DNA of 64,000 nucleotides from Bacteriovoracia bacterium (GTDB taxonomy: Bacteria; Bdellovibrionota; UBA1018; CAIPTA01). Position 1 is the stretch's first letter. Every line of letters begins with the position of its first letter. Shown here piece by piece: positions 20,332 through 57,181 of this stretch. The DNA lies in assembly GCA_050246755.1 (NCBI GenBank), contig JBFWVL010000001.1, positions 1,036,611-1,100,610 of the forward strand, given 5' to 3'. The notes under the pieces were generated by a model. It made no database searches and was not told where the DNA came from. It saw only the letters and a program-made list of their open reading frames with translations. The position numbers and the translations under genes were made by a program.

Positions 20332-20820
20332 TTGTGTTACAAATGGGGTATGCAAGAAGCGAAAAAGACGGACATATCGGGGGTAATCATTGCCCCCAAG
20401 CGTAAACTCTTCGACGACCGCGGCGGCATCTTTCATATGCTCCGCAACGATGACCCGGAGTTCCAAAAGTTCGGGGAAATCTACTTTTCCAAAGTCCACC
20501 CCGGAGTGATTAAGGCCTGGCACCACCATAGCCGCATGACGCTAAACTACCTCGTAGTGAGCGGCTCTATCCAGTTAGGCCTCTGGGACGGGCGCAAAGA
20601 CTCCCCCACTTACGGCAAGCAGCAAACGATCTACCTCGACGAGAGCAATAGCCAGCTCGTGGTGGTTCCTTTCGGGGTATGGAACGGATTCAAGGGCCTC
20701 GGGACCACGAGCTCCGTAGTGGCCAACTGCGCCACCGAACCCCATGACCCTCTTGAGATCACGCGTAAGCCGTATAATGACCCGAGCTTTGGGTATAGCT
20801 GGGAATTAAAGCACGGTTAG
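20332..20820 (+). CDS. RmlC-like cupin: sugar-nucleotide 3,5-epimerase / 5-epimerase or 3,4-ketoisomerase (AscE/FdtA-like). The true start is probably the ATG at 20350
   Basis: Small cupin of about 155 aa in a sugar pathway context (IYFSKVHPGVIKAWHHH). Confidence 0.6.
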   Translation: MCYKWGMQEAKKTDISGVIIAPKRKLFDDRGGIFHMLRNDDPEFQKFGEIYFSKVHPGVIKAWHHHSRMTLNYLVVSGSIQLGLWDGRKDSPTYGKQQTIYLDESNSQLVVVPFGVWNGFKGLGTTSSVVANCATEPHDPLEITRKPYNDPSFGYSWELKHG

Positions 20821-27752: not shown

Positions 27753-28622
27753 TTAAATGTCGCGAAACGGTTTGGCCTGCAAAATGAGCAGACTGCCCAT
27801 GAGCGGTCGCAACTTAACCTCGACGCGGTGTAATAATTGCGCCAGCGAACCAGATACGGCGTTCACGAAGGGCGCGACCACAAAAATGGAATTGATTCCG
27901 GTGGCTTCAAATCCGCAGGTCTCGAGAAACTTCACCAAAGAGTTCGGCGTAAATTTACTGATATGCTGCTCGTGGTATTTAACGGGACTGGCCCGTTCGA
28001 GCAACCATTCGATCATCGGCCAAAAGCTGCGATAGTTGGGCGTGGTGAGCACGAAAACCCCTTCCGGCTTTAGCACCCGGCGCGCTTCCGCCAGAATTTT
28101 CGCCGCCAAAAAAGGATGGATATGCTCGATAACCTCGATGCAGGTTACGGCATCGAAGGAGGCGTCTGGATAGGGTAACTTTTCACCGTCGAGCAGCTGA
28201 AATTTAATATTCCCCGGAAATTTCGCGGCGATGTTTTTAGCCGCAAAATCTATTTGCGGAGAAGCAATATCCACTCCGGTGGCCTGAACTCCGGGCACTG
28301 TCTCCCCCAAAACAGCCAGGAAAGAACCTGGTCCGCAGCCGAAATCCAAAACCGTTTTGGCGCCGCTGCTCCTTACCAGTTTGGCCACTTCCAGGAATTT
28401 TTCCCGATGCCAAAATCTTTGTATTGCGTGGCCCTTGAGCATTACTTCGTAATAATAACCTGCGGGTATTTCACTATAATTAAATACGCTGTTCTTGGTG
28501 CGATGAATGGGAAGCACTAATGGCACCTCAGAACTTGATAGCTTTTGGGAAAAAGGCCCGGCTGAATACTTTCCGGGTTCAGACAGTCTGCTGGTAGGGC
28601 CGTACGTCCTGGCAATGGACAC
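27753..28622 (-). CDS. Class I SAM-dependent methyltransferase. The start may be the internal Met (MLKGH...), which would remove the 106-nt overlap with the upstream gene
   Basis: Motif I VLDFGCGPGSFLAVLGE. Confidence 0.75.
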   Translation of the reverse strand: MSIARTYGPTSRLSEPGKYSAGPFSQKLSSSEVPLVLPIHRTKNSVFNYSEIPAGYYYEVMLKGHAIQRFWHREKFLEVAKLVRSSGAKTVLDFGCGPGSFLAVLGETVPGVQATGVDIASPQIDFAAKNIAAKFPGNIKFQLLDGEKLPYPDASFDAVTCIEVIEHIHPFLAAKILAEARRVLKPEGVFVLTTPNYRSFWPMIEWLLERASPVKYHEQHISKFTPNSLVKFLETCGFEATGINSIFVVAPFVNAVSGSLAQLLHRVEVKLRPLMGSLLILQAKPFRDI

Positions 28623-29899
28623 ATCGCTTGGTCGTAAAGTAGTACCTTACCCCTTGCGGACATACTCGGCATTTGTTCCTTTACGGTAATTGCGCTGCCG
28701 GATTCGTGAAAAAAGCGATCCATAGAAAGCGATCCCTCATTGCAAGGCATCCAAAGCTCGGTAGCGCCGGCACGCTCCAGGCCAGCGGCATTAGCTACGA
28801 TTGCCCCGATATCATGCAGACGTCCAAAATTAATATAGGAACGGTAGGAACTCACCATTACCGCAAAGATTGCCAGCAACGAAAGCCAAATCCCGGCAGG
28901 AATTTTTTTCAAATACCAGAAACCAAGCTGAACGATTAAAGCGGCATACAGAGGAGTAATCACCGACTGTACATAGCCCTGAATGCCCCAAGGTAAAAAC
29001 AATACGAGGAAGGCACTTACTCCGGCCAACGGTATGAGCAGCTCCGGACTTTCCCAAACTGTACTCCAATTCGCGGCGATCCAAACAAGGGCGGCAAAAA
29101 TTGGAACTAAGAAAAGTGCGCCATGCACCGAAAGTAAATTAGGTATGATTTTCCCGGCGCTATATTGGCGCGTATACCCGCCACGGCTGGATATATAAGC
29201 AAAGGATAAAACCATTCCTATTCCCAGGGCCATCAATAAAAAGGATTCCACCCACGCTCGGGACTCCCCTTTTTTAAGTCTAGGCGCCGCCGCCGCCAGA
29301 TAGGCCATGAAAGCCACGCAGTAATGGATAGCGAAAGAAGCTTTTACACAAGCTCCGAAACAAATCCAAGCCAGTGCCACGATCCAAAAACTCCATGTTT
29401 TCCAACGCTCACGGTTCCAGCAGTGCCAGGTAAGGCCCGCCCCCGCGAGTAGAATCATTTTTTCCTGAAGGCTCGGGTGCTGCAACAAATCATGGCCATA
29501 GAAAAAAGCGGCCGAACCGAGAAGAATAGGAACTATGGAAATTTTTAGAATACGGGCCAATACCGCGGAGTAAAGCCAGATCACCGAAAGTACAATTAGA
29601 GCATTCCAAGCAAAAGTGACCCAGGATGCAGTGGCCATGCCTGGCGCATAAATTAGATAAACCATTGGTGGATAAGTTGGGCGAAACATCCCCCACCCAA
29701 GGTCCCCCACACCATAAATCCAAGCAAAACGGAAAATGCCTGCGTCGCGCATTCTTGGCACCATATAAAATAAATTGGTCACGTCGTCCATCAACCCCCA
29801 ATGAGGGCGCAGGATGAAAATGGACAGAAGTATCACGACCGGTATTAGCCAAACACAGATTCGCGGAATATATTTTTCTAAGAAAATCGTGAGCTTCAA
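28517..29899 (-). CDS. Polytopic membrane protein with a C-terminal soluble domain (GT-C-like architecture), hypothetical
   Basis: About 11 TM helices followed by about 100 aa soluble tail. Confidence 0.45.
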   Translation of the reverse strand: MKLTIFLEKYIPRICVWLIPVVILLSIFILRPHWGLMDDVTNLFYMVPRMRDAGIFRFAWIYGVGDLGWGMFRPTYPPMVYLIYAPGMATASWVTFAWNALIVLSVIWLYSAVLARILKISIVPILLGSAAFFYGHDLLQHPSLQEKMILLAGAGLTWHCWNRERWKTWSFWIVALAWICFGACVKASFAIHYCVAFMAYLAAAAPRLKKGESRAWVESFLLMALGIGMVLSFAYISSRGGYTRQYSAGKIIPNLLSVHGALFLVPIFAALVWIAANWSTVWESPELLIPLAGVSAFLVLFLPWGIQGYVQSVITPLYAALIVQLGFWYLKKIPAGIWLSLLAIFAVMVSSYRSYINFGRLHDIGAIVANAAGLERAGATELWMPCNEGSLSMDRFFHESGSAITVKEQMPSMSARGKVLLYDQAMCPLPGRTALPADCLNPESIQPGLFPKSYQVLRCH

Positions 29900-35580: not shown

Positions 35581-36714
35581 ATGTTTCGTCCCAGCCTTGC
35601 CCTCGTATGGGCCTTCTTATCCACCTTGAGCGCTGCTAGCTCCACGCTAATTTATTTATACCTTGCTCACGGCCAGCCCTGGGCCCCGGGCTTTATCCAA
35701 CTTTATTCTTCGCTTGGAATCGTGGCTGGGTGGTTAAATGCGTTAATTTATTTTCTCGCCCCGCGCACTATTTTTTTCCAGACACGCAAGGCGGCACTTT
35801 TCTTTTTCTTCGCGGCCCTCCTAATGGCGAGCACGATTTACGCAAAAATTTTCCACCAAGAGCTAAGCTGGGAAAAACTCTGTTTCCTGGCGACCAGTTT
35901 AATCCCCGTTCTCTACGCAAATGCCTTCGGCATCGAATTTTACGAAGGCAATTATCCTTGGCCCTACAGGCGAATCCTCGCTTTCAATATTTTCATTTTT
36001 TTCGGCGCGATCGGCTCGCTATGCTTCGCGCACGATGAAAGCGGCCTCTATCGCTGGGGGGGCGCCGCCGGTATTCCATTCTTTTGTTTATGGCTATCTG
36101 ACTGCTGGAACCGTATCGATGCGCCGCGAGAAAAATTCGACTCTATTCAACCATGGCTCAACCCGTCTTTGCCAGTGCTCGAGAGAACTCTCTGGGACCA
36201 ATGGGTAGTTTCACGGCTCGACGTCCTAAATTGGAGTTTCGGTATTTATGCATTAGGCCGAGTAGTTACATTCACCGGAAACGTTACTTATTCCTATTTA
36301 ATGGGAACCAATTCGACGGCCTATAAAATAAAACGTCGAGATAATTCCTGGTGGCCATGGGCAGTGATGTTATTAGCAGCTCCAATCGCCGCCGGGGCGG
36401 TGAAATATATTTGGTGCGCTTTTTTACTCGGTCAAATTTTCGCCTGGTTCATCACCGCATTGCTGACTACCGAATACGACTCGGAGAGCTCTTCTTACGG
36501 GAAATACCTATTGATCTGGTTCATGGATCTGACGATTCGCACGGTAGGAATTTTGGTTGCGCAAGACCTGAAAGACTACGCCTCGTTTTTGGTGTTCTCG
36601 AGCGTTACCGGGCTGATTCTTTCACTTCTGCTTCGGCGTAAACAACTGCTAAAGCCGTCCCCAAAAAGAACCAGTACCAAATCCCTCCTTGAGGATTTTC
36701 CAGGCATACGTTGA
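35581..36714 (+). CDS. Polytopic membrane protein, hypothetical
   Basis: About 10 TM helices; no recognisable motif. Confidence 0.45.
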   Translation: MFRPSLALVWAFLSTLSAASSTLIYLYLAHGQPWAPGFIQLYSSLGIVAGWLNALIYFLAPRTIFFQTRKAALFFFFAALLMASTIYAKIFHQELSWEKLCFLATSLIPVLYANAFGIEFYEGNYPWPYRRILAFNIFIFFGAIGSLCFAHDESGLYRWGGAAGIPFFCLWLSDCWNRIDAPREKFDSIQPWLNPSLPVLERTLWDQWVVSRLDVLNWSFGIYALGRVVTFTGNVTYSYLMGTNSTAYKIKRRDNSWWPWAVMLLAAPIAAGAVKYIWCAFLLGQIFAWFITALLTTEYDSESSSYGKYLLIWFMDLTIRTVGILVAQDLKDYASFLVFSSVTGLILSLLLRRKQLLKPSPKRTSTKSLLEDFPGIR

Positions 36715-37999
36715 AGAGCGCGAAAAAATGAAGATTTACCACCGATGCCGCTACCAGCCAGCTAAAATCTGATTTGGGGGAACGAAGGAAAATCCAGCCA
36801 ACCCAGCCGAGCAAACCAGAAAGCAGGAAAAAACCAATCAGCCCCAATCGATTCATGACCGCAAGGAAGCTATTGTGCGGCCCGGAGATCCAGCGCCCAT
36901 CCACCACCGCCGGCAAACCATTGAGCTGCGTCGTCATCATTCTCGTGCCGAAGCCATTTCCTACCCACGGACGCTCGAGAAAACCGTCCCAGGCCTGTTG
37001 CCACAAATGCATCCGAAAAGCCATTAGCGAGGTGGGACTAGCGCTTCCATTTTGGGCAAGATCACCTTTAAAAATAATTCTCCCGATCGAAACCTGGGTT
37101 TCCAGCGGATCTGTGTAAGGAAAAACCTGGTCCAGCAAGAAGAGCATCGCCCGTCCGAACTTCGGCATATTTTCCCTCTGTTTAAGGCTCTCGCTTTGCT
37201 GCCGATGATAAAAAATCGGCTCCTCTCTTGCGGACACATAAAATAGCGTGAGCCCCGCCAATGCAAGACCTAGCAAAAAGGGCCACGTGAGGCGCTTCAG
37301 CAAAGAAGGCCAGTCTTTCCCGGCACGCCAAATCAGCAAAGGCAGCGCAAAAAACAGAACGGAAAAAACCCAGGTACGCTTCATGTAGATCACGAATTGC
37401 GTGAGCCATAAGTGACCGAACGTAAGCGAAATAAGCTCGGGATAGGGTTTGGCCAGTAAAAGATAAACTAAAGGATAGAGCGGAAGAAGAACTTCGTCGC
37501 CCACGGGAAATCCGATTAAACGAGAGTACGTGGACCCGTAAGTTCCCATGAGCAAAAAACCCAGCCAGCCGAAAATCTCCGCCACCGCAATTCCCGAAAA
37601 GCTCACCACCATCAATTTTTTCAGCTCCCTGCCCGAAAATAGAAAAGGAACCAAGAACCAAACGCCCTGGTAGAAAATACAGGTTTGCTTAAGCGATTCT
37701 ATCAGGCCAAATTCCTTTACTTGCCCCGAAGCCACGGAAATCCCCAACCTCACGAATCCCCAAGCCAAAAATGCGCCCAAAAAATAAATCGGCCAGCGGG
37801 ACGATCTTAGAACGTTCTTCCAGTGAAAAACCCGCAGGACCAAGATGGCGGTTAGGGTGGCTTCGGAAATAAAGACGGGAATTGATCCGAGTTTAATATT
37901 CAAATAAGCGAATTGCTTACTGTAGATGGCGATCAAGAAGAAGAATATTCCGAGTAGGAAAAGGGAAATTTGATCGAGCTTCTTTTCCATACTACCCAC
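36605..37999 (-). CDS. O-antigen ligase / Wzy_C-family membrane protein (WaaL-, Wzy- or O-oligosaccharyltransferase-like)
   Basis: Large periplasmic loop with GPHNSFLAVMNRLGLIG (Wzy_C His motif). Confidence 0.6.
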   Translation of the reverse strand: MGSMEKKLDQISLFLLGIFFFLIAIYSKQFAYLNIKLGSIPVFISEATLTAILVLRVFHWKNVLRSSRWPIYFLGAFLAWGFVRLGISVASGQVKEFGLIESLKQTCIFYQGVWFLVPFLFSGRELKKLMVVSFSGIAVAEIFGWLGFLLMGTYGSTYSRLIGFPVGDEVLLPLYPLVYLLLAKPYPELISLTFGHLWLTQFVIYMKRTWVFSVLFFALPLLIWRAGKDWPSLLKRLTWPFLLGLALAGLTLFYVSAREEPIFYHRQQSESLKQRENMPKFGRAMLFLLDQVFPYTDPLETQVSIGRIIFKGDLAQNGSASPTSLMAFRMHLWQQAWDGFLERPWVGNGFGTRMMTTQLNGLPAVVDGRWISGPHNSFLAVMNRLGLIGFFLLSGLLGWVGWIFLRSPKSDFSWLVAASVVNLHFFALFNVCLENPQGGIWYWFFLGTALAVVYAEAEVKESAR

Positions 38000-38870: not shown

Positions 38871-40883
38871 TTAGCGCTTGTTGGCGCCGCTCTTTCGAGT
38901 TCCACGATAGCGTGCCAAGACCGTATAGCCCCCATCGGCCAAAATCGTTTTCGGCCACCCACAGCCCTTCGCGCACGCGGCCAAGGCAGAATCGGTGGAA
39001 GAATTCTGGCCGCTTTGGCTGAATGTCCAGCCAGAATCCCAGGGCCAATGCAGACCTTCCTTCTGACCGGCGCGCACACCTTCCAAGACCACGAACCGGC
39101 CAATTTTCACCGCTAACGTAATGGATTCGTTCCTCGCCGGGAATTTCAATTCATACCATCGCTTACTGCGTGGGTTGAGAGAAAGGGTTTCCTGGTAGCT
39201 ACCAGACTCGATGAGAATTTCTACTGGAGAGAAAGAGCGATTCTGCAATAGAAACGCCGTAATTGGCGAAGAGTTTTTTCCGGGAGTTAGGGCAACTAGC
39301 CCCTTCTCGAGAAGAAATGGCTGCACTGGGCTGGCAAAAGAATAGATTTCCTGTCTTCCCGGCATACGGAAAGGATCATCGGCTCCCAGCAAAGGCAAGA
39401 AAACCGCTTTCCGATCCACTAAGCCGTTGGCTAGAGCGTGATAAAGGCTTTCCTCTTCGGCGTAGACGATCGTTTCTCCCGGAGGAACCAGCTGCCTCAA
39501 AGCTTCGGCCTGGCCATCCTCCATGTAGAAATCCGGAAGACGCGTGATGGCCCTCTGCCAAAATAACAAGCTCTCCCAGTTCTCCACCGGCCCAAGTAGG
39601 CCGCGCTTCGCCACAATAAGCCGATCCACCAACAAACCGGCGAGCGCAATATAAGCCACGACCGCCAGCGCCGAAAAAGAGCGTGCTTTCCCCTTGCGAT
39701 AGCAAAAACGAATCAACGAAAATGCTCCTGCCGCCCAACAACCGCTAAGCAGCAAACCTAGAGGCAACAATAGACGAATCACCAATTCTCCCGGATAGCC
39801 GGGAAGAACATAAAAGAGGCCGAGACCCATTAGGCAAAGCAGCAGAGCTAAAATCACCGAATAGAATTCTCGTTTCGATCGTGTAAGCGAAATAAATCCG
39901 AGGCCAAGCAGAATAAAGACCGATGCAAATCCCCCACGTTGCTGCAAGAACCACTGCAGGACTGAACGTATCGATACGTCTACATTAAGTAGATCAAGGC
40001 CGAGGTGGGCGCCAAAACTACAGCCCACGCCCGGAGCCTTAAAAAGACCGGCGACTAGTTTTGCAAGAATTGCAATCCCGACCAAGACCGCTGCTGACCC
40101 CAGGCCCCTCCGGAGTTTTTTACGATTTTTGACCAACAATAAAGCGGCGGAGATTCCAGCAAGGGCGAATCCCAGTGGATGCATGAGCACCGAAAAGCCT
40201 GCGCACAAGCTTGCGGCTATAACTGCGTATTTTCCCTCGCGACGGCAAAACCACCAACTCATCACGGCTAGGGCTACGCATAGATTGGTAGGTACAATAT
40301 ACTGCCAGCCAGCTCCTGGATATTTGAGCGTAGTGAAAAATAACAAGAAGATTCCCGCGGCCCCTAAGCCGAAAATATCTCCGACGAGTAGGGTAAAGGC
40401 TAAGGCCAAAAACAAACCGCCGAAAATCACTAAGCATGCATAAGCAATTTCCCAGCTCCCTAATGCAAAACGAAAGCCATTGAGGGCGAGGGAGTGCAGC
40501 ACCGAATAGTTACAGAGAATCCGGCCAATATATCGATCTTGCAGAGCAGGAATAACCGGCGATCTTCGCGCTTGCTCAAGAACGGAAGCGTACGAAAGGC
40601 ATTTTGTGAGGGGCACGCAGTGAATAGCGGCATTCGCCTTGTGTATGTAGGCGTAGGCATCGTCTGGCTCCGTTAAAGAGTTCGTCATAAATACGGCAGG
40701 AAATAAATAGAACCCGTATACGGTTAGATGGAAAAGAACCGCTATGCCGAAGAATAGACAAATGGACCATGATTTGGATCCGGCGGGGGCGAATTTGAGC
40801 ATTTTTACCTCGGAAATTGGTTCGGGGCCGAAGGTAACGTGACTGCGGAGAACGCACAACCCGGGAGACCGAAACAAAGGCAC
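38871..40883 (-). CDS. Large membrane protein (N-terminal multi-TM domain + ~280 aa C-terminal soluble domain), unknown function; true start probably MLKFAPAG
   Basis: Hydropathy pattern only. Confidence 0.45.
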   Translation of the reverse strand: MPLFRSPGLCVLRSHVTFGPEPISEVKMLKFAPAGSKSWSICLFFGIAVLFHLTVYGFYLFPAVFMTNSLTEPDDAYAYIHKANAAIHCVPLTKCLSYASVLEQARRSPVIPALQDRYIGRILCNYSVLHSLALNGFRFALGSWEIAYACLVIFGGLFLALAFTLLVGDIFGLGAAGIFLLFFTTLKYPGAGWQYIVPTNLCVALAVMSWWFCRREGKYAVIAASLCAGFSVLMHPLGFALAGISAALLLVKNRKKLRRGLGSAAVLVGIAILAKLVAGLFKAPGVGCSFGAHLGLDLLNVDVSIRSVLQWFLQQRGGFASVFILLGLGFISLTRSKREFYSVILALLLCLMGLGLFYVLPGYPGELVIRLLLPLGLLLSGCWAAGAFSLIRFCYRKGKARSFSALAVVAYIALAGLLVDRLIVAKRGLLGPVENWESLLFWQRAITRLPDFYMEDGQAEALRQLVPPGETIVYAEEESLYHALANGLVDRKAVFLPLLGADDPFRMPGRQEIYSFASPVQPFLLEKGLVALTPGKNSSPITAFLLQNRSFSPVEILIESGSYQETLSLNPRSKRWYELKFPARNESITLAVKIGRFVVLEGVRAGQKEGLHWPWDSGWTFSQSGQNSSTDSALAACAKGCGWPKTILADGGYTVLARYRGTRKSGANKR

Positions 40884-47457: not shown

Positions 47458-48209
47458 TGGCTAAGGCTTTCGTTATCGCGCCCGTACTTAACGAGGCCGA
47501 GAACCTCCCTACTCTCACGCGTAGCTGGAAAGAGCTCTCCCTTGCGTTTCCAAGCTGGAAATTCGAGTTCGTTTTAATAGACGACGGCTCTTCCGACGGC
47601 ACGAAAGCCAGCGCCGAAAAAATGGCAGCCTCGCTTGGGCTAAACTGTCGCGTTATCCGTCATGAACAGAACCAAGGCCCCGGCGCGGCCTTCGCCTCCG
47701 GTTTTACCTATGTGGCCGAAATTTTACGGCCCGAAGATACCGTGATTACAATGGAAGGAGATAATACCTCTCGTATTGCGACGTTAAAAATTATGCTCGA
47801 TCGTATGGAACGGGAAAACGTGGAAGTAGCCCTCGCTTCTCCCTATGCCTACGGCGGTGGGATCATCAATACTTCGCTCTACCGCATGATTCTCAGCCAT
47901 TTTGCAAATGGCATGGTGAAAAGCTTCCTCGACATTCACGGTATCCATACCATGAGTTCTTTTTTCCGAGCCTATCGCGGTTCCGTTATCCTCGGGCTGC
48001 AAAAAAAATGGGGCCCCAGGATTTTGGAGCGCAATGGTTTTGAATGCATGATTGAGCTCCTCAAAAAAATGATCCTCGCCGGCGCCACGATCACCGAAGT
48101 TCCCATGCGCCTCGATACTTCTTTGCGTAAAGGGAAAAGCAAAATGAAGGTAATGCGCACCATCCGGGGCTATTTTGCCGTAATCTGGATCTCCCGGGCC
48201 TGGAAATGA
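47457..48209 (+). CDS. GT2 polyprenyl-phosphate sugar transferase (ArnC/Dpm1-like); GTG start overlapping the upstream stop
   Basis: FVLIDDGSSDGT, GT2 fold, short hydrophobic C-terminus. Confidence 0.7.
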   Translation: MAKAFVIAPVLNEAENLPTLTRSWKELSLAFPSWKFEFVLIDDGSSDGTKASAEKMAASLGLNCRVIRHEQNQGPGAAFASGFTYVAEILRPEDTVITMEGDNTSRIATLKIMLDRMERENVEVALASPYAYGGGIINTSLYRMILSHFANGMVKSFLDIHGIHTMSSFFRAYRGSVILGLQKKWGPRILERNGFECMIELLKKMILAGATITEVPMRLDTSLRKGKSKMKVMRTIRGYFAVIWISRAWK

Positions 48210-49702
48210 AGCGGGACGCTCTCTGCCTCTCCATCGCTGCCGCCTTTCTATTTTTGATCGAAGCCCTTGCCTGGCCGTTAGCGGCCGGCCGCGACGGACA
48301 CTCCTATCTCTACTACGCTTACGATTTTTTTAGCTTGGTTCCCGAAGACAGATTCACCATGCTCTTCCGTACGCCAATGGCTCCTTTTTTTGATTTTATT
48401 TTGCTTACCTACCTTCCACCCTGGGGGGCTGAATTGGCGATGGGAGCCTTGTTCGTAGCCCTCATTCTGAGCCTCTATCGAATCGGTTTATTTTGGGGCC
48501 GCAAAGTCGGCTTATTTTTTGCCGGCCTTTTCCTTTTTCATTTCGGCTGGGGATCCTTATTTCACGTAGTCTCTAACGATCCGCCGCTGGCCATTCTAGC
48601 TCCTCTCTTATTATGGGCTACGCTGGCCTCCGTAAAAACCCAGCGTCCTATTCGTTTTTTCCTGGTCGGGCTTCTCGTTGGCCTCTTCACCCTTACCCGC
48701 CCGGGGATTTTTCCGGCCCTTGGCCTCTTACCTATATTTCTGTGGAATTTTTCCTGGCCAAAGAAACTGGTGAGTGTTTGCGCCTTCTACATGGCTTGCC
48801 TGCCCATCCTGCTGGCCTGGAGTTTCTGGAACTACAGCCACTACGGGTTTTTCTCCATGGCTCCCGGAGCCAACGTGGTATTGCCGCTCGGCCGCGTACT
48901 GGCCCAAGAACAAATTCTCCGTGAGGAAAATGGTCCTAATTCCGCCGAGCTGGCTAAAGCGGTGCGGGAATTTATCCTCCAGCCGATTGGAAGCACCCAG
49001 GACGCCAATGAATACTTTCTTTCTCACCCCCGCTACTTCGAGTACATGCTGCTCGCCGACAAGGCATGGGGCACCGGTAACTATACCATTCTCCAAAAGG
49101 CGGCTTGGGAAGCGGTGGCTGCGCAGCCCGGAAAGTATTTCTGCGGAGTGGCAAAAACGATCTTGCTCTCGATGGCGGGAAACCTAAAACAGCCCGTGCC
49201 ACTGCAAAGTGGCGCCCGCGTTCACACGCATAAAGGCCATGTGTCCTATACGCTCGATACCCAGGACCAATGGATTCCCTTAAAAGAGTTTAACTTTTCC
49301 GCTCCGCTAGGCGGAGACGGGATTTCCGGCGTAATGGCAAAGCTCGGCCCGAATTCTCTCCGCGCCTGGAACTTCATGCGCTCTTTTCCCAAGCGCGACG
49401 GATGGATTCAGGTGGGAACAATCTTGAATTGGATGGCGTATCTCTTTCCACCAATCCTACTTTGGCTTTTGGCCGTTCTTCTCTGGCCTATTAGAAAAAA
49501 GAAAATTGCGCCGCTGGAAATTGGGCTTCTATACTTCTGGCTACTCTGCCTGGCCACCAATGTCCTAGCATCTTTTTCTATATGGAGCGTGATCTACGAG
49601 TATCGTTTACCATTCGATCCCGTCTACGTATTGACCGGGGGACTAGCTTTCCTGCATCGCTTTTGGCCAAAAGCTCTAGAAGATACGCCTAATGCAAGCT
49701 AG
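48206..49702 (+). CDS. Polytopic membrane protein, GT-C-like (ArnT/PMT-like candidate)
   Basis: About 12 TM helices. The first external loop has RDGHSYLYYAYDF (acidic motif). The gene is translationally coupled to the GT2 upstream. Confidence 0.5.
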   Translation: MKRDALCLSIAAAFLFLIEALAWPLAAGRDGHSYLYYAYDFFSLVPEDRFTMLFRTPMAPFFDFILLTYLPPWGAELAMGALFVALILSLYRIGLFWGRKVGLFFAGLFLFHFGWGSLFHVVSNDPPLAILAPLLLWATLASVKTQRPIRFFLVGLLVGLFTLTRPGIFPALGLLPIFLWNFSWPKKLVSVCAFYMACLPILLAWSFWNYSHYGFFSMAPGANVVLPLGRVLAQEQILREENGPNSAELAKAVREFILQPIGSTQDANEYFLSHPRYFEYMLLADKAWGTGNYTILQKAAWEAVAAQPGKYFCGVAKTILLSMAGNLKQPVPLQSGARVHTHKGHVSYTLDTQDQWIPLKEFNFSAPLGGDGISGVMAKLGPNSLRAWNFMRSFPKRDGWIQVGTILNWMAYLFPPILLWLLAVLLWPIRKKKIAPLEIGLLYFWLLCLATNVLASFSIWSVIYEYRLPFDPVYVLTGGLAFLHRFWPKALEDTPNAS

Positions 49703-50768
49703 AGAATATTTTCTCGTGCTTTTCCACGAAGAGCGAAAGCGAGAACTTTTCTTCTACGTGTTTCCGGCAATTGCTCGAAAGGTCTTCGCTTTGGGCTAAA
49801 AGCCTATCGGAAGCGGTGAAAATGTTTTCCGCACTCGGATAGTAAAAATAATCCCAGCCTTGCTCCACCGCCAATAAGGTACCGAGGCTTGGTGGCATGA
49901 GCTCCGGCATTCCGCCGGAAGCAATTCCCAAAACCGGCAACCCGCAGGCCATCGCTTCCAGGGGGACCGTAGGACTGGCGTCTTTGTCCTGCATATGCAT
50001 CAGAACTTTTGCGGAAGAATAAATTTCCGCCGCCTCGGCCTGAGCGTACTGACCCTCTCGCTGAACCCTATCTTCCAGGCCAAGCTCCGCCACCCATTTC
50101 CTGAAATCTGCTTCGGCATTTTCCCAAAGAAAACGCCCAGCGACGCGCATGCGCCAAGCTTTTCCACGTTGTTTAGCCAGCGAAAGCGCCTCGAGCGGGA
50201 GCTTTATTCTCCCGGGCTGACTGCAGCTTCCCATTAGCAAAAACTCAACGGGCCTCCTTCCGGTTTCGGAAATACGTTGGAAAACGGTGGTATCTACCGG
50301 ATTATATACCACCGAACTTAACGCGGTGGCCTTGCCCACCCATTTTTCGCAAGAGAGGCGGCAAAACTCGCTTTGGTAAATGATAAAATCGGCTTTTTCG
50401 AGAAGAGCGCGGGCGCGGGCATTCAGCTTCATTTCTTCTTTGCCCGCCCAAGCTGGATAGGCTACGCCGTTTTGGTTTAGCACGAACCGAAGGCCCTTAT
50501 CTTTGGCGACAGATGCCCAACCCAAGGCGCCTTTGGGCAATGCGCTTGAGACCAGATACAAAAAATTTCCCCGATGACCGCCGTCGGGAAAACGCCTCGA
50601 TAAATATTTTAGCTTAACCGCACCGCCCGCCAGTGTGGATTTAGGGTGGGTCTTCCCGGCGTAAACCACGGAAAGACCGTTCGTTTTTTTTAACCAAAAC
50701 TTTAACCAAAAATAAACGAGAAGATCGAGGGCCCTGCGCACCAGTGGCTTCCAGTTACTATTGCTCAC
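49689..50768 (-). CDS. Glycosyltransferase family 1 (GT-B)
   Basis: C-terminal GLPVLGIASGGMPELM (EX7E region). Confidence 0.75.
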   Translation of the reverse strand: MSNSNWKPLVRRALDLLVYFWLKFWLKKTNGLSVVYAGKTHPKSTLAGGAVKLKYLSRRFPDGGHRGNFLYLVSSALPKGALGWASVAKDKGLRFVLNQNGVAYPAWAGKEEMKLNARARALLEKADFIIYQSEFCRLSCEKWVGKATALSSVVYNPVDTTVFQRISETGRRPVEFLLMGSCSQPGRIKLPLEALSLAKQRGKAWRMRVAGRFLWENAEADFRKWVAELGLEDRVQREGQYAQAEAAEIYSSAKVLMHMQDKDASPTVPLEAMACGLPVLGIASGGMPELMPPSLGTLLAVEQGWDYFYYPSAENIFTASDRLLAQSEDLSSNCRKHVEEKFSLSLFVEKHEKIFSSLH

Positions 50769-51738
50769 CCGAAGGTACCTTACGGAAAGGGTGAGGAAAT
50801 CTGCGAAGAAGTTCCAGCTCGAAATTAGCGCGCTGGATTTTTACCACCGTATCCAGCAGCAGGCCCGTAGCGATAAAAAGCATAGAGAAAACCATCAGTC
50901 CGGTGGCTAGAATCGCCGAGGGAAATTTCGGCACTAGGCCCGTATGCATGAATTCGGTGATAACGGGCACACCAATTAAAAGACCCAAGGCAAAAGCCAA
51001 AAAAGAAAGCGCGAAGAAAAATGGCAGCGGACGGTAATCTTTAAAGATCCAAAGAACCATCTTCAGCACCCGAAAACCGTCACTAAAGGTATTGAGCTTG
51101 GAAAAACTGCCTTCCGGGCGTTTCCGGTAGTCAATCGGCAGCTCCTGTACCGCCAGGCGGTGGTGGGCCGCGTGAAGAGTCATCTCCGTTTCTACCTCGA
51201 ACCCTTCAGATAAAATCGGAAAGCTTTTCACGAAACGGTAACTGAGCACGCGGTAACCCGTCATGATATCGGAAAGCTGGGTATGAAAAAGAGTGTTGAT
51301 CAGCCAACGCACGAGGTTATTGCCAAAATCGTGGAGTGGCCGCGTGTTTTGCGCGCGGTAAACCGCATTGGCATGGCGGTTTCCTACTACCATATCGGCC
51401 AATCCATTCACTACGGGAGCCAACAAGGTGGGCAGATCATCCGCCGAATAAGTTAAATCAGCGTCAGCCATCACGTAGATATCGGCATCTACTTCGCGGA
51501 AAGCCTTGCGAAGCGCATTGGCTTTTCCCGGGCGCGGTTCCCGCAGGATCATTCCGCTTGCACCAAGGGCCTTCAATTGACTGGCCGCCACCTCAGCGGT
51601 GCGATCGGCCGAACGATTATCTACCACCACGATATCGGCCCGCGGCATTTTACGGAAAAATTCGGCCATCGTGGAAGCGATGGTGGATTCTTCGTTGTAA
51701 GCTGGGAGAATAACGACAATTTTTTTTTCTGCGCTCAC
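50758..51738 (-). CDS. GT2 with two C-terminal TM helices (GtrB/ArnC-like bactoprenol-phosphate sugar transferase)
   Basis: IVVILPAYNEE...DADLTYSADD...; C-terminal TM pair. Confidence 0.8.
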   Translation of the reverse strand: MSAEKKIVVILPAYNEESTIASTMAEFFRKMPRADIVVVDNRSADRTAEVAASQLKALGASGMILREPRPGKANALRKAFREVDADIYVMADADLTYSADDLPTLLAPVVNGLADMVVGNRHANAVYRAQNTRPLHDFGNNLVRWLINTLFHTQLSDIMTGYRVLSYRFVKSFPILSEGFEVETEMTLHAAHHRLAVQELPIDYRKRPEGSFSKLNTFSDGFRVLKMVLWIFKDYRPLPFFFALSFLAFALGLLIGVPVITEFMHTGLVPKFPSAILATGLMVFSMLFIATGLLLDTVVKIQRANFELELLRRFPHPFRKVPSGEQ

Positions 51739-52715
51739 TTCGAACCCGCCACTTTCAGTACTTCGGAATATCTCCGGCCAACCTCGGAAATCGAAAGCAC
51801 TCGAATATGCTCGCGATACTCATCTAATTTATCAGCGATTTGCGCAAAAAGCGCGGGCACTTCTTCTACATTATGAAAAGGCTCCCCACCCTTACCCACT
51901 AGCTCCGGACTGCTCCCCGAGTCTTTATATACGGACGGCAAGCCCGATGTGAGGGCTTCGATCAACGCATTCGAGCAGCACTCATTCTCGCTCGGCATAA
52001 AGTAAATATCCTGCTGCCGGAGAAAAGCGCCTACTTCCTCGCTGCCCCGTGGAGCATATGCTTTAATATTTTTAAACTTAGATTCAATGCGTCCCATAAA
52101 ACTTAGCTCATACCGGCTGAAATCGAGGTTTTCATCGAGCCAACTGTAGAGGGCCAAACCCTTCTTAGGGTTAGTGGACCAAGAAGTGCCGGCGATCCTG
52201 ATTTTTCTTTTTTTATCCCGCGCCTGATCGGAACGGAAAAAAAAGGCAGGGTTCACGGCATTAGGAATGATCACGGGCGCCTTAAAGTGAATATCCAGCG
52301 CCTCGTGCATCTCTTTACTGTAGCGGCTCTGCATGATCGTGGCGTCGGCCATTTCTAGGTTCCAATCCGAAATTCGCCTATCAATCGTCGAATCCGGTAA
52401 AGATCGATACACCGAGACCGGGCCGTCTACGCGATGGATGATGCGCAGATTTCTATTTTTGTAGCGTTTTACTTTTTCAAAATCGAAATTGAAAGAATTC
52501 ACCAGCAGCACTTTGGTGGCCGGGCCAACACGATTCTGGCTTACCTTAATGCCTTGATTTTCCAGTTCCCGGATCAGCGCCAATAGAAATTGATTGCCTC
52601 CGCCATAGGGAGGTTTATGGAATTCGTGAATCACGGCAAGCTCGCCACCCGCCGCCCATAATTTTATTCCATGCCAAAAGCTCACTCGGCAACTCTCACT
52701 GCAAGCTCTGCGCAT
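51735..52715 (-). CDS. Glycosyltransferase family 1-like
   Basis: GT-B architecture, ...ENECCSNALIEALTSGLP. Confidence 0.65.
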   Translation of the reverse strand: MRRACSESCRVSFWHGIKLWAAGGELAVIHEFHKPPYGGGNQFLLALIRELENQGIKVSQNRVGPATKVLLVNSFNFDFEKVKRYKNRNLRIIHRVDGPVSVYRSLPDSTIDRRISDWNLEMADATIMQSRYSKEMHEALDIHFKAPVIIPNAVNPAFFFRSDQARDKKRKIRIAGTSWSTNPKKGLALYSWLDENLDFSRYELSFMGRIESKFKNIKAYAPRGSEEVGAFLRQQDIYFMPSENECCSNALIEALTSGLPSVYKDSGSSPELVGKGGEPFHNVEEVPALFAQIADKLDEYREHIRVLSISEVGRRYSEVLKVAGSK

Positions 52716-54522
52716 CGCACATGGCGCGGAAATATTTTCCGCTTTTATAGAGCTCCGAAAAACTCCCGGTCTCTACTAGCGAGCCCTCTTTAAGCACAAA
52801 GATCAGATCGCAATTTCGAACCGTGGCAAGACGGTGAGCAATCATCACGATGGTAGTGGTGCCCTTCAATGCATCGATGCTATCCTGTACGGCGCGTTCG
52901 GATTCAGAATCTAGTGCGCTGGTGGCTTCGTCGAGAATCATCAGGGCCGGCGACTTATAAAGCTCGCGCGCGATAGATAACCTTTGCCGTTGTCCACCAG
53001 AAAGACGAATGCCCCGTTCGCCTACGATTTCCTGCAAGCCACCGGCAAATTTCTCTACGAAGGAAAGACAATTGGCTCGCTTCAGCGCCACCCGCACGTT
53101 TTCCAGGCCATCCACCGATTGATCCCAGCGCCAGAGAGAAACATTATTGGCCACCGTATCGTCGAAAACCACGCTCTCTTGCGTCACGTAACCGATGCGA
53201 GCTCGTAACGAATTGCGATCGAGATCACGATAGCTGGTTCCGTCCACCAATACATCTCCCTCGGAGGGAAGCATCAGGCTCGTGAGCATATCCACTAACG
53301 TTGACTTGCCGGCCCCAGATTCTCCCACAAAGGCCACCATGGAATTGGCAGGAATATGTAAATTTACATTTTTCAAAACTTTCGCCTCTCCATAGGCGAA
53401 GGTAACGTTCTTTAGATCGATACCCGTGCCGATACCCTGAAAGGCTTTTCCGCCTTTCGGCTCGGCCGTTCCACGAAGGTCTTTTAGCGTCTTGATCAAC
53501 ACGTCTACACCACCCACATAGGAGTTAAATCCCTGCCAAGATCCTTGCAGGGTGGTAGTTTCCCGCATTGCCCGATAGAGGAATAGCATGGCCACCATCA
53601 TCGCTTCCACGGTGCGACCGAACACCTGCGTCTGCAGGTAAACCATGCTCCCCAGGAAGGCCACGATCACGGTTTCAGAGCTAGCGGGTAAAATCGCGGA
53701 TAAGAACCCAATCCGCGAACCCGCAGCCGCAACTCGTCCGGCACTTTTAGAAATTTTCTTTTGCAGAGGACCCAAGGATCCGGTGGAAAAAAGATATTTA
53801 AAAGACTGCAGCAACTGCACCACGAGCGAACTCATGCTCGATTCGGACTGAGACAATTCGCGCGACGCGGCGGAAGTCCCTTTCATTACCATCCGTGCGA
53901 TTAGCGCGGTGATTACGCCAAACATTCCGGCTAGCACGGTAAATCGCCAATCCACCCGAATGGAGAGAAGAATATAAAGCGAGATAGAAATCACCATCGG
54001 CACCATCGCTGAAATTTGATAGAAGGCGGTTACCGAGCGATACACTTCGGTGGTCACTAAATGAGTGAAGAAGCCGGAATTGTGCTTAAGGTATTCGGAA
54101 TAGCGCATCGAGGCCACGGCTTGCGCGAGGTCTTCATTGATGCCGCCGAGAATTTTTGAGTACAAACGGAAATGATAGCCCTTCCCAATAAATACCAGCA
54201 AGCTTCTCACCGCAAACACCAATACCAGCACGGGAATCACCCGCGTCGGCACAAATTCGATTCCCAGCCATTGAAAAATTTCTATTAGTTTAGAAATAAT
54301 CGGCGAGGACTGCGTACCGTTCGCGGCCAAAAACTGGATGTACGCGATGAACGCGGCGATACCAGCTCCTTCGGTGAGCGTGCTAAATACGGAAATTCCG
54401 CCTAAAATAAGCGCGCGATCACCGGCATAACGGCGAAAGATGCCATAATAGAAAAAATAGCGCCCAAGCAGGGGTATACCCAGCAAGAAGCTCTTTGATT
54501 CCGGCTGATTTTCTTTCATCAA
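52696..54522 (-). CDS. Fused TMD-NBD ABC exporter (MsbA/PglK-like half-transporter)
   Basis: Six-TM N-terminal domain. Walker A GESGAGKST, signature LSGGQRQR, Walker B ILDEATSALD. Confidence 0.9.
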   Translation of the reverse strand: MMKENQPESKSFLLGIPLLGRYFFYYGIFRRYAGDRALILGGISVFSTLTEGAGIAAFIAYIQFLAANGTQSSPIISKLIEIFQWLGIEFVPTRVIPVLVLVFAVRSLLVFIGKGYHFRLYSKILGGINEDLAQAVASMRYSEYLKHNSGFFTHLVTTEVYRSVTAFYQISAMVPMVISISLYILLSIRVDWRFTVLAGMFGVITALIARMVMKGTSAASRELSQSESSMSSLVVQLLQSFKYLFSTGSLGPLQKKISKSAGRVAAAGSRIGFLSAILPASSETVIVAFLGSMVYLQTQVFGRTVEAMMVAMLFLYRAMRETTTLQGSWQGFNSYVGGVDVLIKTLKDLRGTAEPKGGKAFQGIGTGIDLKNVTFAYGEAKVLKNVNLHIPANSMVAFVGESGAGKSTLVDMLTSLMLPSEGDVLVDGTSYRDLDRNSLRARIGYVTQESVVFDDTVANNVSLWRWDQSVDGLENVRVALKRANCLSFVEKFAGGLQEIVGERGIRLSGGQRQRLSIARELYKSPALMILDEATSALDSESERAVQDSIDALKGTTTIVMIAHRLATVRNCDLIFVLKEGSLVETGSFSELYKSGKYFRAMCDAQSLQ

Positions 54523-54682: not shown

Positions 54683-55765
54683 GTGAATCCTATTTCCCGC
54701 ATGGTCATAGGTCTAGGTGCCAATGCCCGCGCCCTTCTGGCAAAACCCTATACCCAATTGCTGGTAGCCACCGATTTTGCCGGATGGTCTCTCGATGAAG
54801 ATACTAGGGAACTAGTCGCTATTTCCAAAAAACTCGGCCTCACCGCCTATCGGGCCCATCGCCCGCTTTCCCGGCTAGAGCAATGCGTACACTATAGTTC
54901 TTTTTTTTCGCTAGAAGATCCCCGTGTCTTTCAAGGAAAGCACCGGGTTAGCGTGGACTACTATCATGGCAAACCGGAACAGGATCCGGCATTCCGCGCT
55001 GTGTTCGATACGATAAAAAAGCATGCCAACGCCCTTCACCGGGTTCGAATCTCCTATTCGGGAATGTTGCCGGTGGCCGAAAACGCGGGCGTTCCTCGCG
55101 ATCGCATTCATTTGATCCCGATTGCGGTAAATCGCGGTTATTTTCAGCCGCAAACCCGTGAAAGAAAAATTTCTCAAAGGAAAATCCTCGGAATTCCCCA
55201 AAGCTCCGTGGTGATCGGCTCATTCCAGAAAGACGGGCAAGGATGGGGTGAAGGCCTGGAGCCCAAGTGGGTAAAAGGCCCGGACGTTCTCTTACGCACG
55301 CTCACGCAGCTCAAAGAAAAAATTCCCGAGCTTTACGTGCTGCTCACCGGTCCGGCCCGCGGATACGTGAAAAGCGGGTTGGAAAAGGCCGGAATTCCTT
55401 ATCGTCACGTTTTGCTGGAACACTATGCAGACCTAGGAAAATTCTATCAGGCACTCGATCTCTACCTAGTAACGAGCCGCGAAGAGGGGGGTCCAAAGGC
55501 AGTGCTGGAATCCATGGCTTCGGGTATTCCGCTCGTTACCACCAAGGTAGGCCAAGCGATGGATCTTGTTCGCCACCGCGAAAATGGAATGATGGCCGAG
55601 GTAGAAGACGCAGACGCGATTGCCTCTTTTGCGCTTCAGGCGCTCAACGAGACCGCACTGAGCAAAAAAATAATTGAGAATGGGCTTCTCACGGCAGCCG
55701 CGAATACATACGAATCCCAATTGCCGCTCTGGAAAAAATATTTCACGGGTTACCTGAATTTTTAG
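54683..55765 (+). CDS. Glycosyltransferase family 1
   Basis: REEGGPKAVLESMASGIPLVTTKVGQ. Confidence 0.8.
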   Translation: MNPISRMVIGLGANARALLAKPYTQLLVATDFAGWSLDEDTRELVAISKKLGLTAYRAHRPLSRLEQCVHYSSFFSLEDPRVFQGKHRVSVDYYHGKPEQDPAFRAVFDTIKKHANALHRVRISYSGMLPVAENAGVPRDRIHLIPIAVNRGYFQPQTRERKISQRKILGIPQSSVVIGSFQKDGQGWGEGLEPKWVKGPDVLLRTLTQLKEKIPELYVLLTGPARGYVKSGLEKAGIPYRHVLLEHYADLGKFYQALDLYLVTSREEGGPKAVLESMASGIPLVTTKVGQAMDLVRHRENGMMAEVEDADAIASFALQALNETALSKKIIENGLLTAAANTYESQLPLWKKYFTGYLNF

Positions 55766-56524
55766 CTATTTCCGCCGGAAAATAACCGAGGCTTGCACCG
55801 ACTCGCCGGTATTCTTTTCGGGGTCGCGTGGCAGTTTATCTTGAAATTCCAAAATTTCGAACTGCTGTGAGATTAGCTCCCGCATCATGGCCGGCTCGAT
55901 GAAAAGGCTGCAATCGCGCAGCTGAAAATCTTCCGGCTTGGTTACGGTCACTCCGCGGTCCGGATTTTTTCCAAAATAGATATGCGCGTAGCCATTTTTC
56001 TTCAAAATGCGCCTTATGGCGTCAAGGTAAAATCTCACTTCATCTACGCTGTCGAAATGTTGAAACACGATGAAGCTATAAACAAAGTCTATCGACTCAT
56101 CGGGCACGCCTGAGATCTCATTGCGCAAGAATAGTTTGGGATTCTCCACGCCGTTCATGCGCAGAAACTCACGCGACTTATCGAAAGCACCGTGAATATC
56201 CACGCCGTAGACCTCACGGAACTCCTTGGCTGCTTGATGTAAAAGCCGGCCGGCACCGAATCCGATCTCGAGCGCGGCACCTTTGTCTACCTTGTTAAAC
56301 TGGGGAGACAGCTGAAAACGATAGTGCCAGTCGCGCTGGGCCTTTTCCAGGCATTCGGCCACCGAGGCGGTGGTATCGAACCAATTCAAGAAATCCACCA
56401 TATTTCCCAGCGCGGCGGGAGTGGAGGTCCAGGAATCCTTGACGTCAATGGATTTCCCTAAGAACTTCGAGAGGAACTTTTTCCTTAGGATATTCCACTT
56501 CATCCGGGTTTCAGGAAGGAACAT
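55766..56524 (-). CDS. Class I SAM-dependent methyltransferase
   Basis: ALEIGFGAGRLL motif I. Confidence 0.7.
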   Translation of the reverse strand: MFLPETRMKWNILRKKFLSKFLGKSIDVKDSWTSTPAALGNMVDFLNWFDTTASVAECLEKAQRDWHYRFQLSPQFNKVDKGAALEIGFGAGRLLHQAAKEFREVYGVDIHGAFDKSREFLRMNGVENPKLFLRNEISGVPDESIDFVYSFIVFQHFDSVDEVRFYLDAIRRILKKNGYAHIYFGKNPDRGVTVTKPEDFQLRDCSLFIEPAMMRELISQQFEILEFQDKLPRDPEKNTGESVQASVIFRRK

Positions 56525-56533
56525 ACGCGCGCC

Positions 56534-57181
56534 TCATTTCGTTGCCACCACGAAGTATCCCGTGGTGAGGGAAGAACGTTGTTTTCTAAAAATTTTCTCC
56601 ACCAGCCAAAAAAGAGGCTCGGCAAAATATAGCAGCTTACGCGAGATCTTCACCGAAAGCTTTCGTTGGCCCGGGTGTGCGTATCCCGTAGCGGCTTCGA
56701 GGGCGTCGAACAGAATCGCGCCCAGACCGCCCATTTCGCTAATCGAAAAATTGCGGAATCCGGCTCGGCTAAGCAAAAGGGCAGTGCCCGCCCGAGTGAA
56801 ACGGAAAAAATCCTGTTCTGCATCTCCATGCACCGGGCATTGTAGCGGAACCGATAGTATCAACCGCCCGCCCTGTACGAGCAGGCGGTTCATTTCCGTA
56901 AGGGCAGCGGCGGGATTCGAAACGTACTCCAATACTTCCGTCATCACGATCAAATCAAAGCTGCTGTCGGTGGCCGGAATACTTTCCGCTCCCGCCAGGA
57001 AATCGGGCTCCGCGGCGGCGTCCGGATTGGCATATTTCCAAGAGCTCACTTGACCCAGTGGCGGGCGAAAGCGGCCGCGCTTATTCGATTTCCGCCCTCC
57101 CACGTCCAGCACACGACCGGCCATCGTCGGCAACAATGCTTCCAGCTCGGCATCGAGGTATTCCCGCCGAAAAGTAATCAT
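56534..57181 (-). CDS. Class I SAM-dependent methyltransferase (Methyltransf_11-like); start taken at MITFRREY
   Basis: RVLDVGG motif I, DLIVMTEVLEYV, GGRLILSV. Confidence 0.7.
   Translation of the reverse strand: MITFRREYLDAELEALLPTMAGRVLDVGGRKSNKRGRFRPPLGQVSSWKYANPDAAAEPDFLAGAESIPATDSSFDLIVMTEVLEYVSNPAAALTEMNRLLVQGGRLILSVPLQCPVHGDAEQDFFRFTRAGTALLLSRAGFRNFSISEMGGLGAILFDALEAATGYAHPGQRKLSVKISRKLLYFAEPLFWLVEKIFRKQRSSLTTGYFVVATK

Follow-up and report, generated by a model that had tools for sequence, protein, structure and literature searches.

A 64,000-nucleotide (nt) stretch of DNA from a Bacteriovoracia bacterium (assembly GCA_050246755.1, contig JBFWVL010000001.1, positions 1,036,611 to 1,100,610), here called the window, was the part of the source genome on which this analysis was based. 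From 17.3 to 63.8 kb (17298-63807) the gene content is that of a glycan locus of 46 kb, and within it lies the gene in question, which encodes a fused ATP-binding cassette (ABC) exporter. The ABC gene and the genes next to it are:

52696..54522, minus strand: ABC half-transporter in which the transmembrane domain (TMD) and the nucleotide-binding domain (NBD) are fused, of the type IV (ABCB-like) exporter class by Pfam and by a TMD profile; first of four operon genes
51735..52715, minus strand: GT1-type glycosyltransferase (Pfam); second operon gene, overlapping the stop of the ABC gene by 20 nt
50758..51738, minus strand: GT2 glycosyltransferase with two C-terminal transmembrane (TM) helices, of the polyprenyl-phosphate glycosyltransferase type (AglJ/GtrB/ArnC/PpgS-like); 4-nt overlap with the preceding GT1 gene
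49689..50768, minus strand: GT1-type glycosyltransferase; last gene of the operon, 11-nt overlap with the GT2 gene
54683..55765, plus strand: GT1-type glycosyltransferase, transcribed away from the ABC gene, with a spacer of 160 nt between the two

The three overlaps indicate that the ABC, GT1, GT2 and GT1 genes form one four-gene operon, and the ABC gene is probably translationally coupled to the glycosyltransferase gene that overlaps it. The GT2 protein scored 204 bits with the AglJ model TIGR04182, below the cut-off of 325. The ABC open reading frame (ORF) comprises 608 amino acids (aa) if counted from a TTG codon, but translation probably begins at the ATG at 54519, the codon directly after the TTG, which has a GAGG about 11 nt 5' of it. 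The resulting 607-aa form was 100% identical to an 'ABC transporter ATP-binding protein' at NCBI from a Bacteriovoracia metagenome-assembled genome (MAG), encoded on a contig of 1.9 Mb. Its NBD contains a Walker A motif (VGESGAGKST), a Q-loop, the signature LSGGQRQR, a Walker B motif (LMILDEATSALD) and an H-loop (IAHRL), and matched ABC_tran (PF00005) with an E-value of 7e-31. ABC_membrane (PF00664) remained sub-threshold on the window protein (19 bits; gathering score 28) and was annotated on its relatives from about 52% identity downwards. With a full set of NBD motifs and an N-terminal six-helix TMD fused to the NBD the protein is, by its sequence, a type IV half-transporter. An earlier sequence-only reading of the window had described just such a fused protein with these Walker A and signature motifs, placed among GT1 and GT2 genes and divergent from another GT1 gene, and in this it was right.

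The curated exporter families did not accommodate the protein. The best NCBIfam match was the HepA family (NF045513) with 312 bits over residues 43-595, where the cut-off is 725. The MsbA models gave 290 bits (TIGR02203; cut-off 602) and 236 bits (PRK11176; cut-off 867), and the PglK model NF050066 gave 228 bits against a cut-off of 1000. Judged by these models the protein is an equivalog of neither MsbA nor PglK nor HepA. In a full-length comparison with the sequences in the PDB, MsbA (207 bits) and PglK/WlaB (198 bits) came out level because the NBD dominates such a comparison. The TMD alone had no match in the PDB; matches were obtained only with a full-TMD profile, made from 16 members of the family. 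This profile ranked MsbA first (57-69 bits, E-values down to 3e-18), followed by PglK (51 bits over the whole TMD, E-value 1.4e-12), BmrA (48 bits), Sav1866 (34 bits) and NdvA (17 bits). A hidden Markov model (HMM) of the family TMD gave 347-449 bits for members, and about 80 ABC exporters from outside the family reached 117 bits at most. The latter had been collected by a metagenome scan with the ABC alignment, in which generic NBD motifs were picked up and which contributed one extra member. At the sequence level the family is thus sharply delimited. We regard it, on these profile scores and its gene context, as a new family of MsbA-like single-polypeptide ABC translocases in glycan pathways that lies outside MsbA, PglK and HepA by the curated criteria. 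In the databases its members are named 'ABC transporter ATP-binding protein' or 'multidrug'.

The neighbourhoods of ten relatives with 36-65% identity to the ABC protein were read, from Bdellovibrionota-like MAGs, Salinibacter, Salisaeta and Kofleriaceae:

L100 (65% identity): methyltransferase, PhyH, deacetylase
L005: epimerases, GT1, GT2, a GT-C-like protein of 601 aa
L008: GT1, HisH/HisF-like genes, sulfation genes
L006: GT1/GT2, NeuB, CTP_transf_3, and a GtrB-like GT2 flanked by two GT-C-like proteins
L007 (5.8 kb): same arrangement as L006
L017: four GT1, methyltransferases, Wzy_C
L016, Kofleriaceae: Glyphos_transf, GT1, GT2, two GT-C-like proteins
L015, Salinibacter ruber: sulfotransferases, NeuB
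L098, Salisaeta longa: SLBB (Wza-like) and Wzz/GNVR/kinase (Wzc-like) genes upstream, a nonulosonic-acid pathway downstream
L099: methyltransferases, Asn_synthase, GT1

All ten were glycan loci, with GT1/GT2, epimerase, methyltransferase, NeuB/CTP_transf_3, sulfotransferase, Wzc/SLBB or Wzy_C genes. In none of them was a Pfam-recognisable MOP/Wzx protein found within 10 kb, and lpxK or other lipid A genes were likewise found in none; lpxK was also not found in the window. The immediate neighbours of the ABC gene differed from relative to relative, as would fit a generalist flippase, and only the GT1 gene 51735-52715 recurred: in L008 it adjoins the ABC gene (71% identity), and it accompanies the ABC gene in L006 as well (51%).

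It might be thought that the ABC protein is simply the housekeeping MsbA, the lipid A-core flippase, which happens to sit in a glycan locus. MsbA has the closest solved TMD, the NBD is 39% identical, and the residues equivalent to R78 and K299 of MsbA are basic in the window protein (R106 and R320), the former throughout the family and the latter in the window clade only. The residue equivalent to R148, however, is P175 in the window protein and Pro, Ser or Thr across the family; this alignment rests on a TMD identity of 12% to Escherichia coli MsbA. Moreover, the scores with both MsbA models were less than half of their cut-offs, and the gene was never beside lpxK: in every case it lay in a glycan locus, and the glycan genes on either side of it varied. 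A housekeeping MsbA is therefore very unlikely, which agrees with the separation from MsbA that the sequence-only reading had presupposed. Even less probable, to the point that we would be surprised to see it borne out, is a drug, peptide or lipid exporter unconnected to the glycan pathway. Such a role would suit the JGI label of the relatives ('multidrug transport system') and the closeness of BmrA to PglK in the TMD ranking. Against it stand the glycan contexts of all ten relatives, spread over three phyla, and the overlap of the ABC gene with a glycosyltransferase gene in the window.

Other exporters were sought with Pfam in all window ORFs of at least 150 aa, and with NCBIfam additionally in the polytopic ORFs. 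There was no match to Polysacc_synt, MurJ or MatE (MOP/Wzx), ABC2_membrane or Wzm/Wzt, Wzz/GNVR, Poly_export/SLBB or GtrA, nor to Bac_transf, Glycos_transf_4 or STT3, and components of the Wza/Wzc/KpsDE type were not found in the window by HMM either. The same scan of 17298-63807 detected neither a priming phosphoglycosyl transferase (of the Bac_transf or WecA/MraY type) nor a regulator of chain length. The gene for initiation must therefore lie elsewhere, unless a protein that went unrecognised does this job. The intergenic gaps, not longer than 160 nt across the glycan locus, leave no space for a hidden small gene of the GtrA type. Hydropathy revealed eight polytopic ORFs in the window, five of which had no family match even at E-values up to 10. 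One of these five was a candidate flippase, and it lies next to a Wzy_C gene:

35581..36714, plus strand: candidate cryptic MOP-fold (Wzx/MurJ-like) flippase of 377 aa, whose AlphaFold2 model has 12 helices arranged 6+6
36605..37999, minus strand: Wzy_C-family protein (family of O-antigen ligases, polymerases and O-oligosaccharyltransferases; PF04932, E-value 1e-12)

The 377-aa protein has nine full-length homologues with 29-71% identity, and all ten members lack a Pfam domain. The AlphaFold2 model, built from an alignment of these homologues, had a predicted local distance difference test score (pLDDT) of 78 and a predicted template modelling score (pTM) of 0.77. It consists of 12 long helices in two six-helix lobes separated by a central loop of 23 residues, and it has no large soluble domain. 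Lys and Arg cluster in the N-terminus, the central loop (174-196) and the C-terminal tail, so that the modelled layout is 6+6 with both termini inside, as in MOP and major facilitator superfamily (MFS) transporters. In a Foldseek search of the PDB the top 24 matches all belonged to the MOP superfamily (MurJ 6nc9/6nc6, WzxE 9g9p/9g9n, MATE); MFS proteins ranked only below these, and WaaL, SEDS and GT-C proteins were not among the top 50. The scores were marginal (E-values 2e-3 to 3e-2; TMq 0.35-0.51), but a confident model of a GT-C enzyme from the same locus (28517-29899, see below) scored similarly against its own undoubted fold class.

At the sequence level there was no support. The MOP models of Pfam (Polysacc_synt, Polysacc_synt_3/_C, MurJ, MatE) matched neither the protein nor its nine homologues at E-values up to 10, NCBIfam gave no match, and the family profile matched no PDB sequence. 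Comparison by hhalign with WzxE, WzxB, WzxC and MurJ of E. coli gave probabilities below 2%, and with WzyE and WbbH no signal. A comparison of the N-terminal with the C-terminal lobe for an internal repeat failed, as it did for the WzxE control, and so has no power. The 6+6 layout of 12 helices, with both termini and the central loop on the positive (cytoplasmic) side, and the Wzy_C neighbour resemble Wzx and MurJ; in length the protein falls short of WzxE (416 aa) and MurJ (511 aa), and the TM-scores were 0.43-0.51. Taking these points together, the model probably does reflect a MOP fold, and the odds that the protein acts as a Wzx-type flippase are slightly better than even. In its tail T366 and D372 are conserved, although the pLDDT is low there.

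The sequence-only reading had named the ABC protein as the only exporter recognisable by motif between 17.3 and 63.8 kb, with the caveat that a flippase might hide among the polytopic ORFs. Searches for Wzx/MOP, Wzm and GtrA with sequence profiles bear out the former statement, while the fold comparison gives substance to the caveat. As a translocase candidate the ABC protein would no longer be alone, which is a soft refutation in view of the marginal E-value (about 2e-3) and the lack of sequence support.

The gene of the 377-aa protein and the Wzy_C gene are convergent, and their 3' ends overlap by 110 nt (36605-36714). This overlap was kept in two syntenic metagenomic loci, L009 (11010-11131, 122 nt) and L010 (10289-10383, 95 nt), in both of which a block of YfhO, methyltransferase, 377-aa protein, Wzy_C and GT2 genes was found. 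Outside the window, L009 and L010, an HMM of the 377-aa family found no member, and there was no ABC gene in the roughly 20 kb seen of the latter two. The window therefore appears to join two separable modules, which the gene content indicates to be a Wzx/Wzy-like module at 17.3-49.7 kb and an ABC module from 49.7 kb to at least 63.8 kb.

The explanation that we favour, with a probability of roughly 55%, is that the ABC protein is a dedicated translocase of lipid-linked glycans which works like PglK and Wzk but forms a family of its own. It would be a homodimeric ABCB-type half-transporter in the service of a surface-glycan pathway. The neighbouring GT1 and GT2 enzymes would assemble an oligo- or polysaccharide linked to undecaprenyl phosphate or pyrophosphate (Und-P, Und-PP) on the cytoplasmic face of the membrane, and the ABC protein would use ATP to flip it to the periplasmic face. 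There, GT-C enzymes may extend or decorate the glycan and the Wzy_C-family protein may transfer it. The upstream module would have a probable flippase of its own in the MOP-fold protein. The substrate, the direction of transport and the division of work between the two translocases are what we infer in this scheme.

PglK (WlaB) of Campylobacter jejuni and Wzk of Helicobacter pylori are likewise fused TMD-NBD half-transporters in a glycan pathway without Wzx or Wzm/Wzt. To our knowledge, single-polypeptide ABC flippases of lipid-linked glycans have been characterised essentially only in Campylobacterota, the phylum of PglK and Wzk, whereas the family described here occurs in Bdellovibrionota, Rhodothermota and Myxococcota. 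The flipping of Und-P(P)-linked glycans is the demonstrated role of Wzk and PglK, and Wzk has a relaxed specificity and also flips full-length Und-PP-linked chains (PMC2841628). The varied neighbourhoods of the ABC family fit this relaxed specificity (PMC2841628), and in combination with the lack of Wzx in the family loci and the nearness of the TMD to MsbA and PglK they fit an ATP-driven flippase of relaxed specificity. Unlike PglK, however, the protein falls far short of the PglK cut-off, its TM1-loop-TM2 region lacks detectable similarity to that of PglK, and neither PglB nor STT3 was found in the window; unlike the PglK and Wzk pathways, the locus also has a MOP-fold candidate. The PglK-type arrangement that the sequence-only reading saw in the locus is consequently best kept as a statement about how the protein works and dropped as one about family membership. 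Its further contention that the locus stands apart from classical O-antigen export was too strong, as the locus has features of the Wzx/Wzy route and several GT-C enzymes.

Several points weigh against a dedicated translocase of lipid-linked glycans. The best curated model was HepA, an exporter in polysaccharide deposition, and on the TMD profile the drug exporter BmrA was near PglK (48 against 51 bits). The loop between TM1 and TM2 is about 25 residues long, its length is conserved and it contains an amphipathic-looking segment (SPIISKLIEIFQWLGI), but the TM1-loop-TM2 region is family-specific: its profile matched no ABC exporter in the PDB, so that the external helix of PglK could not be matched. 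A priming phosphoglycosyl transferase and STT3 were both missing from the HMM results for the window. In principle, the MOP-fold candidate in the same locus could do all of the flipping.

The HepA score raises the question of whether a finished polysaccharide, lipid-free or lipid-anchored, might be exported in a HepA-like or capsule-type manner instead of a short lipid-linked oligosaccharide. HepA, too, is a fused exporter whose gene lies among those of glycosyltransferases. In Salisaeta longa the ABC gene lies behind the SLBB and Wzz/GNVR/kinase genes, and the family loci contain many methyltransferases; methyltransferases cap chains in some ABC-dependent pathways. On the other hand the HepA cut-off was far off, HepA is cyanobacterial and heterocyst-specific, components of the Wza/Wzc/KpsDE type did not appear in the window scan, and in the TMD ranking the glucan exporter NdvA came far behind MsbA and PglK. 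Wzm/Wzt and KpsMT likewise use ATP to export a glycan that was built in the cytoplasm, but they have a type V fold with a separate ABC2_membrane permease and NBD, and the window scan gave no such pair. We consider export of a finished polysaccharide distinctly unlikely as a separate explanation, and since Wzk already flips full-length Und-PP-linked chains it merges into the lipid-linked-glycan translocase favoured here.

A further alternative has to be weighed with regard to the GT-C enzymes of the locus, which number at least two and probably five. The proteins concerned, together with a GT2 whose gene overlaps one of theirs, are:

28517..29899, minus strand: GT-C fold glycosyltransferase (AlphaFold2 model and Foldseek), from a family without Pfam coverage
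32262..34703, minus strand: YfhO-family (GT-C type) polytopic glycosyltransferase (PF09586, E-value 6e-10), kept in L009 and L010
47457..48209, plus strand: GT2 of 250 aa with weak PpgS/AglJ/ArnC-like matches, overlapping the start of the next gene
48206..49702, plus strand: polytopic protein of 498 aa with a weak PMT_2 match (Pfam, E-value 0.017)
38871..40883, minus strand: polytopic protein of 670 aa with TM1, a loop containing EPDDAYAY, a TM cluster and a soluble C-terminus of 240 aa
20836..22239, minus strand: polytopic orphan of 467 aa with loops of 84 and 110 aa

The protein 28517-29899 had 114 relatives, and none of the 79 that were scanned had a Pfam family. Across these 79 sequences D37 and D38 in the first loop were invariant, and G69, Y241 and E387 are invariant in the family as well. 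The AlphaFold2 model (pLDDT 97.5) had its best PDB matches in ALG12, AftA, DPY19, PglB, STT3, Pmt and Emb. According to this model it is a GT-C enzyme and not a flippase, and it is the founding member of a GT-C family without a Pfam or NCBIfam model. The pair 47457-49702, conserved in L010 (17254-19484), is by its matches a probable polyprenyl-phosphate-sugar synthase and GT-C enzyme; it resembles two-thirds of a three-component glycosylation system, without a flippase gene. The protein 38871-40883 had no match in Pfam, NCBIfam or the PDB sequences and is GT-C-like through its topology alone. Of 20836-22239 a single homologue (97% identity) was found among 5.8 billion clustered proteins. Both share the GT-C-like pattern of TM1, acidic loop and TM cluster, and their large loops and domains are a misfit to the canonical Wzx layout.

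Searches of PDB sequences with the polytopic ORFs, whether as single sequences or as profiles, gave nothing useful. That these ORFs might be paralogues of one GT-C family was considered and is not supported at the sequence level, as an all-against-all hhalign comparison of 13 proteins from the window and related loci showed no cross-relationships; nor did the deep profile of the 28517-29899 family show a relationship to the other polytopic proteins in hhalign. Beside the ABC homologue of the Kofleriaceae locus, L016, lies a tandem pair of polytopic proteins (11116-14330), each about 530 aa long, with the first-loop motif W-S-[LM]-I-D-D-H-E. This motif resembles the W-G-L-M-D-D of the 28517-29899 family, whose HMM misses the pair.

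With so many GT-C enzymes at hand, the ABC protein might flip a polyprenyl-phosphate monosaccharide made by the GtrB/AglJ-like GT2 of its own operon, and so feed the periplasmic GT-C enzymes in the place that GtrA or ArnEF has in a three-component system. The GT2 gene lies two genes downstream of the ABC gene, and GtrA was neither detected in the window nor could it be accommodated in the gaps. In L006 the ABC gene shares an operon with genes for a GT-C-like protein and a methyltransferase, which precede it, and adjoins the GtrB-like GT2, which has two C-terminal TM helices, with the second GT-C-like protein beside it. However, an association of GT2 and GT-C was found in only about four of the 11 family loci. 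Near the ABC genes of the closest relative (65% identity) and of five other family loci there was neither a GtrB-like GT2 nor a GT-C-like protein, and the MOP-fold protein would be equally available for the role of supplying the monosaccharide donor. We know of no ABC exporter in the GtrA/ArnEF role, and regard this alternative as unlikely. The same unlikely standing applies to the complete machine that may be envisaged: the GT2 would load a sugar onto Und-P, the ABC protein would flip the loaded sugar for use by up to five GT-C enzymes, and the 377-aa MOP protein would flip the repeat unit for Wzy_C. If true, it would make the locus the first case of three-component glycosylation driven by an ABC protein, beside a minimal Wzx that no sequence model detects.

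The locus is unusual in that it combines MOP-like and GT-C families missed by Pfam and NCBIfam and up to five GT-C enzymes with no identifiable flippase for a polyprenyl-phosphate sugar. The occurrence of the ABC family in glycan loci of three phyla that are Wzx-less by Pfam suggests that this route is more widespread than annotation shows. At the same time, absence of Wzx by HMM is weak evidence: neither Pfam nor NCBIfam picked up the MOP-fold protein or the GT-C family, which has 114 relatives. In glycoengineering, generalist flippases are useful parts.

The 17 kb upstream of the glycan locus has housekeeping character, with RNase E/G, Maf and RluA genes and, directly adjoining the locus (9550-17297), an operon of the Bat aerotolerance type with MoxR (AAA_3), DUF58, VWA, VWA+TPR and BatD genes. 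Two ORFs of this operon with two distant TM helices each (13382-15370 and 15339-17297) had been considered as Wzz/Wzc and were rejected, being the VWA/TPR and BatD proteins. An ORF at 4562-5164 (200 aa, N-terminal TM helix) was likewise rejected as a PglC-like priming transferase, as Bac_transf did not match it. A sub-threshold match of Polysacc_synt_C (23.9 bits; gathering score 28.7; residues 28-86) to 20332-20820 was probably spurious, since the protein has no TM helix; it is a cupin-type sugar isomerase (dTDP_sugar_isom, E-value 4e-14).

Between 17.3 and 63.8 kb the sugar and modification genes comprised three DegT aminotransferases, several short-chain dehydrogenase/reductase (SDR) epimerases/dehydratases, a TviB/WbpA-like dehydrogenase, a WecB equivalog, a NodU-like carbamoyltransferase, two polysaccharide deacetylases and at least eight methyltransferases, besides four GT2, three GT1, one Wzy_C and one YfhO protein. 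The regions 30930-32246, 40989-41942 and 43602-46467 encode a TviB/WbpA-like UDP-GlcNAc 6-dehydrogenase, a GFO/MocA oxidoreductase, a hexapeptide acetyltransferase, a DegT aminotransferase and a WecB-equivalog 2-epimerase, and such a set would be expected where a 2,3-diacetamido-2,3-dideoxy-uronic acid precursor is made.

Two conserved proteins had no match in Pfam or NCBIfam:

59514-60875, plus strand: protein of 453 aa without family assignment
60877-62793, minus strand: protein of 638 aa without family assignment

Full-length homologues of both (29-41% identity) were present in the ABC-family loci L005, L006 and L008, in two of these three near NeuB or CTP_transf_3 genes, and they are possibly unrecognised transferases. 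The NodU-like carbamoyltransferase is encoded at 23571-25289, and the number of ORFs for S-adenosylmethionine (SAM)-dependent methyltransferases, eight, is unusually high; among these are:

27753-28622, 34814-35566, 55766-56524, 56534-57199, 57919-58707 and 58848-59510: SAM methyltransferase ORFs

Their abundance, together with the carbamoyltransferase, suggests that the glycan may be heavily O-methylated and carbamoylated.

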